In this document: positions 1-51,718 of the stretch, piece after piece
Layout of the letters: every line of letters begins with the position of its first letter
Position numbering within the stretch: position 1 is the stretch's first letter
Virus record (IMG/VR): IMGVR_UViG_3300013383_000248
Length of the DNA: 51,718 nt
Reading direction: 5' to 3' (one strand)
From: a virus
Program-made: the position numbers and the translations under genes
Notes under the pieces: model-generated
What the model saw: the letters and a program-made list of their open reading frames with translations, nothing else
Told to the model about the DNA's origin: nothing
The model's database searches: none

Positions 1-130
1 ATTAAAAATTATATTTTATTACTTTATACCTATTGGGCCGAAAAATTCTAAACCTTAATTTTAATTTAAACTTTCGGATTAACCATCCCAAGCCGGCTGA
101 AGTAAAAAGTTTATTACCTTAAAATATATA

Positions 131-168
131 AAAAAAAAGATGGACTGATTAATTTAATCAGTCCATCT
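131..168 (-). terminator. rho-independent terminator (13-bp stem GATGGACTGATTA, then T8 on minus strand)
   Basis: perfect inverted repeat agatggactgatt/aatcagtccatct followed by T-run on minus strand; ends the minus-strand tRNA transcript. Confidence 0.7.
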
Positions 169-206
169 TCATAGAAAGGATGTGAAATGCAATGACTTGA
201 AACGAG

Positions 207-295
207 TGGCGCGGAGCTGAGGTGTCGATCCCCATCCCTTTCACAGGACCAGCGGTTTTCAAGACCGAGTCCAAGGCCGCTTGGATTAACTCCGC
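207..295 (-). tRNA. tRNA-Ser (anticodon TGA), long variable arm, CCA encoded
   Basis: minus-strand read GCGGAGT...GCTCCGC-G-CCA acceptor pairing, anticodon loop ctTGAaa, ~89 nt with long variable arm. Confidence 0.55.
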
Positions 296-537
296 ATATT
301 AAAACAAGACTCACTGAAAAGCCAAAAGAAAACGCGAGAATTAGCTTACTAATCTAGCTAAAAAGGAAAAACTTTTCAAAATATACTATATTTTCTTTAT
401 TATACTTTTTCATTTATTATTTGATAAGTAAGTATTATAGAGCCTTTGTAGGCAAAAGTTTGCTGAAAATGAGTCTTATATATGAAGGGTGAAAAGGAAT
501 ACCTTATTGTCTTTGCTCTCGACAAGGTTTAACCGTA

Positions 538-625
538 TGGCGGAAACGCTGCGACTCGAACGCAGACTACTTTCACAAGTAGGATAGATTAGCAATCTAT
601 TGGGATACCATTACCCCACGTCTCC
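538..625 (-). tRNA. tRNA-Ser (anticodon GCT), long variable arm, CCA encoded
   Basis: acceptor GGAGACG/CGTTTCC-G-CCA, D arm GGGTAATGGTATCCC, anticodon stem ATAGA/TCTAT with loop ttGCTaa, T arm GCGTTCGAGTCGC. Confidence 0.6.
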
Positions 626-777
626 AAATATAAAAAAATAGATAGTAAAAAACAAGCATTGTGCCAAGGCGTAAAAACTCTATCTATTGTATAGTTTTTG
701 TTCCTTACATATTTAAATATATAAGAAAGGATTACCGGTAGCCTGCCGCCTAATAACAGGGTCTCCTATAACCGGAC

Positions 778-966
778 TTACTGTGCTGTGGCCTCAGCAC
801 CTCTATGTTTTACAAAATGATCTGCCTGGCGACGCGGCATCCAAATCAAAGTACCATCATAAAATCTGAAAAGATAAGTCATAAAATTATCCTTATCATC
901 AGTCTTGCGGCACTTGCCCTTGCCATATTTCTTACACCAGACCTTATCTCCTGGATTAAACTTCAT
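778..966 (-). CDS. small basic hypothetical protein (62 aa)
   Basis: ORF with AAGGAG RBS 8 nt upstream of ATG; stop TAA; lysine/cysteine-rich N-terminus. Confidence 0.35.
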   Translation of the reverse strand: MKFNPGDKVWCKKYGKGKCRKTDDKDNFMTYLFRFYDGTLIWMPRRQADHFVKHRGAEATAQ

Positions 967-1091
967 TATTTTCTCCTTAATAATTTTAACAAAGCCCGAA
1001 AATAACTTGTTGGATTTGAACCAACTATAAAAAATTTTTCAGAATTTCTTAATTAACCTTTTTTTTAAATTGCTGTATGGGCTTTTACATA

Positions 1092-48214: not shown

Positions 48215-50168
48215 TTAAACCGCCTGATGTGCCAGATTCTGCCATTCATAGATGATGTTCTGGCCTACTTCATTTGCAATTTCTCTAGCCTGACGTCTGG
48301 TGTAGGCGTGTTTTGTGCTACTGATGTAATATTTTCCATTTTTGAATTGAATACTGCAACCACCATCTAAAGTATTAAGCATTTTCACTGCAAAGATTGC
48401 CATTTCAGGAATATCAACATCATAAGTTTTTACATTCACCTGAAAACCGCCCTTGTACTTTTTGATTTTCCCATTCTTGATGTTCAGGGTATCGCCGTCC
48501 TGCATTTTCTTGATAGTTCTTACGTTAATCATTTTCAATATTTCCTTTCTGATTTTTAATTTGGTTTGTTGTTTTATGAGAGGGCTTTCCGCCCTCTCAT
48601 TTTACTCGTCCATCATGACGAAGAAATTCCAGCTTGAATACTCAGGTCTGCCGTCAGCAGGGTTATTGTGGCGGACCACCTGACAGAATGAAATAGAAAT
48701 CCAGAGCATAATAATGATTCCGGATAGGGTCAGTGCAAGTTTGATATTTTTCATTTCAAATTTTTCCTTTCGACTTTTGGATTCAGGTGCTCGATTGTGC
48801 AGTTTGAAAGCGGTAGAAGGACCTTAGAGGTCCTTCACTACTAGCGTCAGATGGTCGGCAGTATGTTCGATTGCCTGCACCACCTGATATGTTGTAAAAT
48901 GATAAGTAGTCAGTAGACCAGAAGTAAAGACCGCAGACCTACTGCCGAAGCCCACGATTTCAAGCTCTTGCATAATATAGAGCTTTTCTTCCAGTTCGCG
49001 ATAAAAGGCGTTCTGCCAAGGGCAGTTGAATGTGCAGGGCAAATGCCATTTGCAATATTCAGTCTGAACATTGTTTTTGTCCAGAAAGCGGATTTCAACA
49101 TAGGGATTGAGATTGTTAAGTTCCATATTATTCCATCCTTTCTATTGGAAGCCAAGGGTTTTAACCCTTGGCTCTATAGGTCTCAGTGCCATTAGAATAC
49201 TGTGCCATGACTTCGCCGGTTTCCATGTCAATGACATCACGTTCGTTCCGTGCCCACAGGCTGTAGGCTCGTGCCATGTGCCGTGCCGCACTCAGGCTCT
49301 TGTAAAGAATGCCATACTTGCCAGTGCTCAGATTATAGATTTTGTACATGATGTTGCTCCTTTCCTGTATCTGGTTGGCTTAGTCAGCCAACCAGATATT
49401 GCGACTATTTGCGATACACCAGCCGCGGCAATTCTTAGACAGCCGCTCGATATCCTCAGCCAGATACATAGAATAGCCATAGGCATCAGTCAGCTTTTTC
49501 ACCTTACCCTGAATGCTGTTGGTAAGCAGGCTATAGTACCTAGCCCAGTAGATAGTATAGCTAGCCTCAGCGATCTGCTGAGCAAGGTATTCACGCTGAG
49601 CGTTCATCTCTTTACGCTTGGGGTCGGAATAACCCAGTTCCTTAGTGGCACTGTTCAGACGCACAATAGTCTTCTGCATGGCGTTCAGGCGAGCACTTCT
49701 TCTGTTGATACGATTCATAATAATCCTCCTAATAAATGTTAGTTGGTTGGTAGGTGAAGAAGCTTATGCTTCTTCACCATATAACAGAGTGTACAGGTTG
49801 TCAAAGAAGTCCTCAAGCATATGCTCAAAGACATCTGCCCATTCTTCGGCCTCATCCTGCAAGTCTCTCAGTCTCTGGTAGATTGCATCATATTCGGGGC
49901 ACGGACAGCCGGTTTCCATGTCCATATTGTAGTCTGTGTGTTCAAGGTCATATTCTGCACTGTCAATAGCCCATGTCAGACTATCCCATGCGTCAATGTT
50001 CTGTGCCGCATAACAATGGTATTCTTCTACCATATGCTCCCAGTCGAAGCTATCGCCAAGCATATGGTACTGCTTGACATATGTCAAGATATCTTCTGCC
50101 TGCTCTACGAGTTCTTCTTTGATTGCCTTTTCCTTGGTTTCCTTGCTAGTGATTATTGTATGTACCAT
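48215..50168 (-). CDS. five hypothetical proteins: 48215..48538, 48824..49126, 49161..49349, 49380..49718, 49764..50168 (acidic)
   Basis: minus-strand ORFs, none with recognized motifs. Confidence 0.4.
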
Positions 50169-50413
50169 ATTGTACCAATCCTTTTCATATTATTTGACTG
50201 TTAGTTGTCAACTGTCCGTGAGTCTATGTGCCGCAGGCGTTGGACTGCCCTACAGCTTGCACCGCACTTTCCATGTTCTACCATTACGTCCGCTATGCGG
50301 TGCAGACGTTCGGCTTAAATCCAGTTTTCAAGGTTCAGGCGGTTCGGTGCTATCCGCGTCATGCCGGTCATTTTACTACACTGTCAAGGACTTGCGTGGT
50401 TTGTTGTTGTCCT

Positions 50414-50458
50414 CTTGACATTTTGAATTGTACCACACTTTGCTTTGTTTGTCAAGCG
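50414..50458 (-). promoter_or_regulatory. TTGACA-N17-TACAAT promoter followed by ~230-nt GC-rich structured leader (50170-50400)
   Basis: minus read GCTTGACAAACAAAGCAAAGTGTGGTACAAT. Confidence 0.45.
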
Positions 50459-50654
50459 TTTTTTTCAAGTTTTTTTTGAAAACTTTCTTGACTGTTTTTC
50501 GTTGTTCCATGGGGTCAATTTCTGATTATGATTATAGCAGATTGCAAGGAAAAGTCAATACTAAAAAATGGAAAATCAATAAATTTTTTAGATTTTTTTT
50601 CGGGGCTTGTTTTTGCCAGATCCTACCAATTTTCTTGGAGGGTGCGAACGTACT

Positions 50655-50915
50655 TTACCTCTTTACTCAGATGAAGAAAGACTATAGACTTTACCTCTTT
50701 AATCAAATGAAGTTGGAAGAAACTGGGGGGGGTGCGTTTCGGGCTGGATTTTTTTGGGAATGGAAGAAAATGGTTTTCCTGGAAAATTAATTTCTAAACT
50801 TATTTTTAATTTCAGAATACGGAATTAATTTCTAAAACCTTTTTCAAATTCAAAACACGGAAATAATTCCTAAACTCAATTTTAATTTTAGAAAACGGAA
50901 ATAAAAAAATAGGCG
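50655..50915. repeat. direct repeats: 2x ACTTTACCTCTTTA(C/A)TCA(G/A)ATGAAG (50655-50715) and 3x ~38-nt imperfect tandem GGAAnTAATTyCTAAAy...AATTTyAGAAnAC (50790-50915)
   Basis: tandem imperfect repeats without spacers, immediately downstream of the AbrB-like gene terminator. Confidence 0.45.
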
Positions 50916-50962
50916 AGAATTTAATTCTCGCCTTAATCATCTTTAATTACTCGATAACCATT

Positions 50963-51172
50963 CTATTCCAATGTCTCTTTTGCAAGAGCTACAGCATCGC
51001 TTGCTTCAGGGCATTCGATGCACAAAAAAGTCTTTCCATCTACTTCATCAATATAAAATTCATAATTATGACCATTTACCATATGTAGTTCATCACGAAG
51101 CTTAGAAGGAATCATTAAACGTCCAACTGTATCGAGTTTTCTCGTATATGCTGTCTTAAGCATTCTACTCAC
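50963..51172 (-). CDS. AbrB/SpoVT/MazE-family swapped-hairpin DNA-binding regulator (69 aa)
   Basis: RKLDTVGRLMIPSKLRDEL...EFYIDEVDGKTFLCIE resembles the AbrB N-terminal domain (DELGRVVIPIELRRTL..). Confidence 0.55.
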   Translation of the reverse strand: MSRMLKTAYTRKLDTVGRLMIPSKLRDELHMVNGHNYEFYIDEVDGKTFLCIECPEASDAVALAKETLE

Positions 51173-51281
51173 TCCTTTCTATGTCTGGGAGAGTATGAGC
51201 CATCCCTTGATTTTTTATAATTTATTTTACAAAATTTTTTGTCCTTTGTCAAAATTTTTCTTAACAAAATCTTAACAATAA

Positions 51282-51718
51282 TTAGTCAAAAGGAACAAGA
51301 CCATCATTTGGGTCAATTACTCCTCGTTCTTGATGGAAGCGATAATTGGTAAATCCATTTTTAAATTGATAAACTTCTACTTCAGGTATAATATATTGAT
51401 CTTCCTTATCTACGATTTTAGAACCAAGAGTAATACCAATTGGATCACCCTCTTCTTCATATTTAGATAAATCAATTGCCATTGAGTCTCTCTGACTCTT
51501 TATAACATGAACAATACCCGGCCCAATATATTTGCTCTCTAATCCCCAATTAAGTTCAATATATTTTTTATCATCCTTAAAATTCAAAAAATCATCAAGG
51601 GCTTTATTAAATTCTTTATAATACTTTGCTTTAACAATTTTGCTATAAATAAATCGTGCCGCACAACCTAATCCAATAGCTGCACTACTACCTAAAAGAA
51701 GCCCGTGGACAAACTTCA
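51282..51718 (-). CDS. hypothetical protein, N-terminus beyond window end (partial)
   Basis: reading frame of track ORF 51282..51587 stays open to the window edge (...VHGLLLGSSAAIGLGCAARFIYSK...). Confidence 0.4.
   Translation of the reverse strand, partial: KFVHGLLLGSSAAIGLGCAARFIYSKIVKAKYYKEFNKALDDFLNFKDDKKYIELNWGLESKYIGPGIVHVIKSQRDSMAIDLSKYEEEGDPIGITLGSKIVDKEDQYIIPEVEVYQFKNGFTNYRFHQERGVIDPNDGLVPFD

Follow-up and report, generated by a model that had tools for sequence, protein, structure and literature searches.

TAG codons very probably read as glutamine in a gut phage lineage of ~190 kb whose tRNA array lacks a tRNA(CUA)

Recoding of TAG from stop to glutamine (genetic code 15) has been described in gut phages of the crAss-like, Lak, Garnet, Amethyst, Sapphire, Agate and Topaz clades (10.1101/2021.08.26.457843; PMC9523058), and it was validated by metaproteomics (Peters et al., PMC9523058). 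In the published pattern, early genes contain few recoded codons and late genes contain many (Borges et al., 10.1101/2021.08.26.457843). Here, we analyzed the in-frame TAG codons of the virus record IMGVR_UViG_3300013383_000248, a DNA stretch of 51.7 kb (hereafter the window) with a G+C content of 35.5% and with coding potential nearly all on the minus strand. The window was 100% identical to two parts of the ENA metagenome contig ERZ27300205:k119_95604 (192,997 bp), where it occupied ~90.4–142.1 kb, and its relatives were IMG/VR contigs of 137–188 kb with 75–90% nucleotide identity to it. Sequence comparison indicated that TAG in this phage is very probably a sense codon read as glutamine, with TAA and TGA as stops, i.e., genetic code 15. 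TAG recoding of this sort is already well described in phages; what makes the present case of interest is that a CUA tRNA is missing and how the TAGs are placed.

The window resembled the code-15 gut phages in several respects. In-frame TAGs in conserved genes aligned with glutamine, TAA dominated among the stops, and the G+C content was low. Only a fraction of the genes was recoded, with far more TAGs in structural-type than in early-looking genes. With its 193-kb size and low recoded share, the phage resembled the Sapphire clade (26% of genes recoded, genome size 201 ± 22 kb), which is a lead only. A difference was that neither the array of the window nor those of its close relatives contained a tRNA(CUA); instead, the window had a tRNA whose anticodon loop comprised six bases, and the relatives had a tRNA(UUA). 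Phage phAss-1 of the proposed Phassvirus is likewise a large gut phage with TAG at conserved glutamine positions in many open reading frames (ORFs; Babkin et al., PMC10607447), and it also lacks a dedicated aminoacyl-tRNA synthetase and is rich in tRNA genes (PMC10607447). Three tRNA-Sup(CUA) genes distinguish phAss-1 from the present phage (PMC10607447). It was absent among the best matches listed for the RNA ligase of the window.

In Escherichia coli, the suppressor supE is a tRNA-Gln with the anticodon CUA, and supB is a tRNA-Gln with the anticodon UUA that reads both UAA and UAG. The present system is similar in having glutamine at UAG and a UUA anticodon, which occurs in the tRNA of the relatives and is readable in the odd tRNA of the window. 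It differs in that the trait is fixed genome-wide and is not a mutant allele, and in that the anticodon loop of the window tRNA has six bases.

In two conserved enzymes, a TAG fell on a glutamine position:

5070–6029, minus strand, C5 cytosine DNA methyltransferase, in-frame TAG at 5991–5993 (codon 13)
24744–26873, minus strand, MetK (S-adenosylmethionine synthase), in-frame TAG at 26811–26813 (codon 21)

The methyltransferase kept the S-adenosylmethionine-binding motif I (ELFAGIGT-x) upstream of the TAG, which fell on the Q of GIGTQ. This Q was present in 114/114 motif-bearing homologues, an agreement that could be partly circular, given that database entries of relatives are translated with table 15. 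Genuine CAA codons occupied the site in two standard-code homologues, a JGI homologue with 54% identity (L022) and a 68% identical methyltransferase from a phage translating under the standard code (L029). Read-through of this TAG, as claimed by the first-pass annotation, was thus supported by the motif ahead of it, by the homologues and by the two genuine CAA codons. In MetK, the 20 residues ahead of the TAG formed the conserved N-terminus. Alignment with solved MetK structures, obtained by a PDB search, placed the TAG on the Q of HPDKICDQISD (GHPDKICDQISD), in agreement with the earlier proposal of an invariant glutamine. The TAG was kept in four relatives, in which all 5–7 substitutions in the preceding 20 codons were at third positions. 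A tryptic peptide across the TAG would be VCD-Q-VSDAILDYVLQLDPDAR. A promoter-like site (26934–26906) was located upstream of the MetK ATG.

MetK also contained an intein of 322 amino acids (25137–26102, minus strand; CVNGDTEF...VFITGN/C), inserted at the conserved GGG/AFSGKD site. The intein was found in the relatives L002 and L004 and was precisely missing from L001 and L003.

The window was further compared with relatives of ~80% identity over 45,692 aligned codon pairs. Where a window TAG was aligned to a relative, the relative also had TAG at 50/57 positions. Counting both directions, TAG was exchanged with CAA or CAG in 7 of ~15 independent site events, and the remaining events involved AAA (two) and ACA, TTA, GAA, TAT, GCG and TGT (one each). 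The CAA/CAG enrichment was very strong because glutamine codons made up only ~2.6% of the codons. Homology across the TAGs, retention of TAG in the relatives and the exchanges with CAA and CAG agreed with the earlier view of TAG as a sense codon and suggested that the amino acid is most likely glutamine. Substitutions were overwhelmingly at third positions before the MetK TAG, around both TAGs of the gene at 9506–10333 and after a TAG of the Cys-rich protein P1 (both listed below). Around the TAGs of these three genes, indels were in frame and the downstream stops were conserved.

The window as a whole was also tested. All ORFs bounded by TAA or TGA were listed with their internal TAGs, and the named cases were translated individually. 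A codon-usage model was trained on long standard ORFs, and the coding score was recomputed with each stop as a sense codon:

standard code, no stop as sense: coding score 6311, coding density 75.2%
TAG as sense: coding score 6617, coding density 80.1%
TGA as sense: coding score 5999, coding density 73.3%
TAA as sense: coding score 5661, coding density 77.6%

Re-calling the genes with TAG as sense, as the first-pass annotation had proposed, thus raised both the score and the density. The coding signal was specific to TAG, and the score fell when TGA or TAA was treated as sense. The curated window comprised 82 genes and 13,203 codons, with 25 in-frame TAGs spread over 13 genes, and the true stops were TAA (57 genes) and TGA (25 genes). 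Both codons have kept their stop function, because the score dropped when they were read as sense and because all 82 genes ended in one or the other. Gene calls under table 11 were indeed truncated, and the public gene calls on k119_95604 already read through TAG (275, 481, 319 and 146 amino acids). For annotation, this means that the genome needs table 15, without which MetK, the methyltransferase and many structural-type genes appear broken. A naive table-15 call added TAGs at 6320, 15994 and 20991, which lay upstream of real starts or inside a tRNA and were rejected as not genic.

The first-pass annotation had named nine genes with in-frame TAGs, and all nine had real coding sequence on both sides according to the ORF listing, translation and homology. 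Besides the two enzymes, they were as follows:

7032–8477, minus strand, P1, Cys-rich paralogue, TAGs at 8400–8402 (codon 26) and 7152–7154 (codon 442)
9506–10333, minus strand, gene of unknown function, TAGs at 10277–10279 and 10247–10249
12692–13198, minus strand, membrane-anchored DUF5067 protein, TAG at 13055–13057 (codon 48)
26924–27364, minus strand, gene, TAG at 27356–27358 (codon 3)
35379–35588, minus strand, small gene, TAG at 35571–35573 (codon 6)
2766–3383, minus strand, HNH endonuclease ORF, eight TAGs at 3096, 3075, 3057, 2952, 2913, 2898, 2874 and 2772
36444–37115, plus strand, gene of unknown function, TAGs at 36672, 36768, 36801 and 36999

Searches of PHROGs, NCBIfam and Pfam left the plus-strand gene, P1 and the genes at 9506–10333 and 26924–27364 without an assigned function. 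The P1 TAG at 7152–7154 was confirmed, and a second one at 8400–8402 had been missed before. The 40 codons after TAG 7152 held two CxxC pairs that were invariant in two other paralogues within the window. In relatives, 6–8 of 10–11 substitutions in this tail were at third positions, with one in-frame indel and a conserved stop. True ORF ends had been said to coincide with terminators or downstream ATGs, and this held in the two cases looked at: the P1 TAA overlapped the ATG of the next gene, and a terminator-like hairpin (37116–37143) directly followed the TAA of the plus-strand gene. In the gene at 9506–10333, the second TAG was CAA in three relatives, codon 66 was CAG in the window and TAG in a relative, and 7 of 7–8 N-terminal substitutions were at third positions. 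The Pfam DUF5067 match (1e-19) of the gene at 12692–13198 began at the TAG and was preceded by a hydrophobic N-terminal anchor; no start codon past this TAG yielded an ORF of at least 60 amino acids. The TAG site of the gene at 26924–27364 was CAA in L002, AAA in L001 and TAG in L003 and L004, and that of the gene at 35379–35588 was TAG in three relatives and ACA in L003.

For the HNH gene, the in-frame TAGs were real, and the count was eight where five had been given. The HNH domain was recognized by Pfam, full-length homologues of 204 amino acids spanned all eight TAGs, and all eight were kept in L005. The start codon was ATA in the window and ATG in L005. The ORF filled almost all of a ~730-nucleotide insertion that split a tRNA gene (2697–3510, minus strand):

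3510–3474, minus strand, 5′ half of the split tRNA
2745–2697, minus strand, 3′ half of the split tRNA

Both halves were visible in the sequence; joined, they were called a tRNA by ARAGORN, and the anticodon arm was identical to that of the tRNA-Lys(UUU) of relatives. The gene had been described as an intron HNH gene. Its location inside an insertion in the anticodon loop, between intact halves, was in line with this description, but no group I core was detected: Rfam gave no group I or group II match in the insertion even at E ≤ 10. Only ~110 nucleotides lay outside the ORF, and there was no G before the 3′ junction. The plus-strand gene had the highest plus-strand coding score of the window, and its homologues of 220–225 amino acids spanned all four TAGs. 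The region around it (36100–37300) was unaligned in the relatives, all of which had other sequence there, and it looks like a recent acquisition.

TAGs were also found in four other genes:

17486–19219, minus strand, P1 paralogue, TAG at 17540–17542, 18 codons before a conserved TAA
50933–51163, minus strand, AbrB/antitoxin-like gene, TAG at 50963–50965 (codon 67 of 76)
40630–41280, minus strand, gene with a TAG near its end, TAG at 40666–40668, read-through ambiguous
46907–47287, minus strand, gene with a TAG near its end, TAG at 46976–46978, read-through ambiguous

Both the TAG and the downstream TAA of the gene at 17486–19219 were kept in three relatives. The gene at 50933–51163 belonged to a PHROG antitoxin family; its TAG was CAG in L015, and the tail NGYRVIK was conserved, with changes mostly at third positions. 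The TAGs at 17540–17542 and 50963–50965 are thus likely further sense TAGs beyond the nine named genes.

Several observations weigh against the reading of TAG as glutamine. The TAGs at 40666 and 46976 are ambiguous because the tails after them were not conserved in relatives: the TAG of the first gene was kept, but its tail had a 17-nucleotide deletion, and the tail of the second showed frame-breaking indels. These two C-terminal TAGs may act as stops. At the TAG sites of the HNH ORF, Q was only one of several common residues in the homologues, and part of this signal is circular, again through the table-15 translation of relatives in the databases. At those of the plus-strand gene, homologues had mostly E or D, not Q. 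The tRNA and gene survey, which covered ~68 kb of the 193 kb (the window and 16.5 kb of flanks, ~8 kb on each side), revealed no tRNA(CUA) by ARAGORN at several thresholds, Rfam or a loop scan, and no release factor or aminoacyl-tRNA synthetase domains among the scanned proteins. A tRNA(CUA) was found in L027 (8060–8150, 91 nucleotides), which is more distantly related and shares the methyltransferase TAG. This tRNA had a long variable arm, A1-U72, G73, G18G19 and a normal T loop, and by classical identity rules it looks more Ser-like than Gln-like.

The tRNA array ended inside the window:

207–6632, minus strand, tRNA array with Ser-UGA, Ser-GCU, Phe-GAA-like, Met-CAU, interrupted Glu-UUC, Val-UAC, the split tRNA holding the HNH ORF, Phe-AAA, Leu-UAG, a tRNA-like element (4312–4403), interrupted Gly-UCC and an odd tRNA (6561–6632)
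6561–6632, minus strand, non-canonical tRNA with the 6-base anticodon loop GUUAGU, candidate stop-codon decoder

The first-pass annotation had found no tRNA with the anticodon CTA in this array, and ARAGORN, Rfam and the loop scan agreed. Its suggestion that the suppressor lies elsewhere fits this result, and the release factor search of the same sequence was also without a match. The YU-CUA-R loop scan of the window gave no tRNA-like site, only one perfect hairpin (48818–48834) without tRNA arms, and in-silico splicing of the interrupted tRNAs produced a CUA anticodon at no junction. No CUA tRNA was present in the complete array of L038 either. A pattern scan of IMG/VR for the L027-type tRNA(CUA) matched only unrelated contigs. 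Canonical tRNA(UUA) genes occurred in the close relatives L019 (369–442) and L038 (12246–12319).

The odd tRNA scored 45 bits on the Rfam tRNA model, had a U1-A72 pair and was preceded by its own promoter-like site (TTGAAA-17-TATAAT, 6713–6685). ARAGORN called it "Stop/Leu (ta)", undecided between Stop (UUA) and Leu. It fails the canonical suppressor form, with six bases in the loop and not seven with U33 and a stop-complementary anticodon. Five relatives had the loop GUUAAU and compensatory changes in all four stems, indicating that the cloverleaf is under selection; homologues were located in L019 (4251–4325), L005, L006, L007 and L035–L038. A literature search on 6-nucleotide anticodon loops returned nothing. 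A kinship of the odd tRNA to the tRNA-Leu(UAA) or the tRNA(CUA) of L027 was considered, and alignment gave it no support. Another 6-base-loop tRNA occurred in L027 (879–953, called "Lys/Lys", tt), showing that shortened anticodon loops recur in these phages. The decoder could be a CUA tRNA in the remaining 125 kb, a UUA-type tRNA wobbling on UAG, or near-cognate reading after loss of release factor 1 (RF1). With full tRNA arrays that lack a CUA tRNA and contain UUA-type and 6-base-loop tRNAs, the lineage is well suited to testing how TAG is read in the ~60% of recoded phages "without a suppressor tRNA".

TAG density was uneven, as the first-pass annotation had noted. TAG made up 6.9% of the glutamine-type codons of the window, or 3.8% without the HNH and plus-strand genes, which are mobile-looking. 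The left flank contained tail-fibre-like Mtd_N genes with 1–6 TAGs each, genes in the right flank had 8, 14 and 8, and the total of the right flank was 34 TAGs vs. 59 CAA+CAG. The TAG-rich flank genes, with up to 14 TAGs per gene, included YonD/YonG-like genes. TAG was dense in late or structural-type genes, where "late" is assigned from Pfam names only, and sparse in early-looking genes, in agreement with the published pattern. The 11 ordinary TAG-bearing genes of the window had eight TAGs in the first 50 codons, four in the last 25 and one elsewhere; under a uniform model, at most one mid-gene TAG was obtained in ~1 of 100,000 trials. The TAG positions in the TAG-rich flank genes look uniform. 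Placement at gene ends would reflect selection under incomplete or delayed TAG decoding, in which an early TAG would abort translation cheaply and a late TAG would leave a working protein. Such placement in sparsely recoded genes was not found stated in the preprint of Borges et al., in which a text search for "N-terminal" gave no match, and it supplies a testable prediction for the gating model.

We propose that, early in infection, host RF1 would terminate at TAG, and TAG-bearing genes would give only short abortive peptides. Full-length MetK and methyltransferase, and the products of the TAG-rich genes, would appear as the capacity to decode TAG accumulates. This activity might be a phage suppressor tRNA charged with glutamine by host enzymes and encoded in the remaining 125 kb, or a UUA-type tRNA of the array; we infer both the timing of decoding and the identity of the decoder. 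Gating of some genes by recoding, as suggested by the first-pass annotation from the uneven density, would fit the published model, and the TAG-dense flanks and the end placement strengthen it.

Decoding by a UUA-type (ochre-type) tRNA, with UAG read through U:G wobble and without a CUA tRNA, is unlikely. The reader would be the tRNA at 6561–6632 (G-UUA-G-U loop) here and the canonical tRNA(UUA) in close relatives, and TAA could stay the main stop if RF1 and release factor 2 both compete there or if the tRNA reads UAA poorly. The lack of a CUA tRNA in the entire array here and in that of L038, the canonical tRNA(UUA) in L038 and L019, and the retention of G-UUA-R-U across lineages in the odd tRNA, with its compensatory stems, U1-A72 pair and strong promoter-like site, all speak for such a decoder, and E. 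coli ochre suppressors with the anticodon UUA, such as supB, do read UAG in addition to UAA. However, TAA predominated among the stops of the TAG-rich flank genes as well, so that a tRNA reading UAA efficiently would do harm, and the coding score dropped with TAA as sense. To our knowledge, decoding by a 6-base loop that lacks a normal U33 is not known; Leu anticodons (UAG in the window, UAA in relatives) are an equally good reading of the loop, and the tRNA survey covered 68 of 193 kb. Odd loops in phage tRNAs have also been explained as escape from anticodon nucleases (PMC10264068). The fuller proposal, that this lineage reads TAG without a CUA tRNA by means of UUA-type tRNAs (canonical in relatives, with a 6-base loop here) and that TAGs at the starts of early and middle genes serve as cheap checkpoints, must be considered unlikely. 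Quite improbable is a system with no dedicated suppressor tRNA, in which the phage would disable or outcompete host RF1 and the near-cognate host tRNA-Gln(CUG) would read UAG as glutamine. In RF1-deficient E. coli, glutamine is among the main residues that near-cognate tRNAs insert at UAG, and no CUA tRNA was found in the 68 kb. TAG suppressor tRNAs have been found in only 40% of TAG-recoded phages (Borges et al., 10.1101/2021.08.26.457843). On the other side, no gene product emerged as a candidate RF1 inhibitor, 8–14 TAGs in one gene demand an efficiency per site that near-cognate reading rarely gives, and the distant relative with the same methyltransferase TAG carries a tRNA(CUA).

Two further explanations concern the meaning of TAG itself. 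Translation as another residue, e.g., Ser, Glu, Leu or pyrrolysine, is very improbable. The Ser-like tRNA(CUA) of L027 (long variable arm, G73), the predominance of E or D where homologues of the plus-strand gene align with its TAGs and the possible reading of the odd tRNA as a Leu tRNA would fit it, whereas TAG fell on invariant glutamines in MetK and the methyltransferase and was exchanged with CAA and CAG, and not with single-step Ser or Glu neighbours such as TCG and GAG. Pyrrolysine was rejected in view of the invariant glutamine sites and of the L027 tRNA, which with G18G19 and a normal T loop is not tRNA-Pyl-like. The chance that these genes are decayed pseudogenes with TAG as a real stop, or that the TAGs are assembly errors, is practically negligible. 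The genes do look broken under table 11, and the HNH ORF has lost its ATG (ATA). However, the same TAGs occurred in independent assemblies and in 80%-identical relatives, essential motifs stood on both sides of them, and conservation continued past the TAGs in relatives, contradicting the decay that the first-pass annotation had considered. Pseudogenes and assembly errors were ruled out because the frames stayed intact, with third-position substitutions, in-frame indels and conserved downstream stops. Genetic code 15, with TAG read as glutamine, remains the preferred reading.

Megablast of 10 kb of the window against GenBank phages gave no match, and the best GenBank phage protein matches were from Bacillus phages (~43% identity). 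YonD/YonG-like proteins, which are SPbeta-like, were encoded in the contig flanks, and they suggest that the host of the phage is probably a member of the Bacillota. A phage lineage of ~190 kb with SPbeta-like features, occurring in several gut metagenomes, is thereby added to the known TAG-recoded phages. The leftward gene block of the window comprised host-takeover, nucleotide-metabolism, RNA-repair and tRNA genes.

Other tRNA genes of the array were interrupted as well, and for none of the anticodon-loop insertions did Rfam recognize a group I or group II intron. The tRNA-Glu(UUC) (1422–1557, minus strand) was interrupted right after the anticodon by a 58-nucleotide element (~1464–1521). 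This element was itself tRNA-like, with the acceptor stem GUUGAAU/AUUCAAC, a T arm and an ACCA end and without an anticodon arm, and it scored 38.6 bits on the Rfam tRNA model; the tRNA-Glu of the relative L019 (624–700) was uninterrupted. A tRNA-Gly(UCC)-like gene (6335–6470, minus strand) had a 65–68-nucleotide hairpin insertion in the anticodon loop with a 7-bp closing stem (CCGCGUA/UAUGCGG), and the weaker tRNA-like element at 4312–4403 (minus strand) had a 24-nucleotide insertion. These last two are not group I introns because they are too short, and they also had no Rfam intron match. An RNA-repair-like set was observed, comprising a Metallophos phosphoesterase, an RlaP nucleotidyltransferase, an AAA_33 kinase-like protein and an RNA ligase, together with a YrlA (Y RNA-like) match in the tRNA array (43.8 bits, below the gathering score); these features lay at 13908–15688, 21894–22430, 32685–34055 and 1170–1285. 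The genes may point to protein-dependent tRNA repair or splicing, and the set possibly has a connection with the interrupted tRNAs or with protection from anticodon nucleases.

The window also contained three large Cys-rich paralogues, P1 among them (7032–8477, 10967–12601 and 17486–19219, minus strand), which shared an invariant SxHPLDY and multiple CxxC motifs; no Pfam family was found for them, only a PHROG of unknown function. A KDO8P/DAHP-synthase-like (KdsA-like) gene (1934–2638) had no counterpart in the IMG/VR relatives and looks recently acquired. A strong promoter-like motif (TTGAAA, 17 nucleotides, TATAAT) inside an A/T-rich "aaaaaatattatataatatata" block preceded single tRNAs and several genes including MetK, and its sites were located on the minus strand at 6713–6685, 6526–6498, 4477–4449, 1785–1757, 26934–26906, 21294–21266 and 10966–10938.

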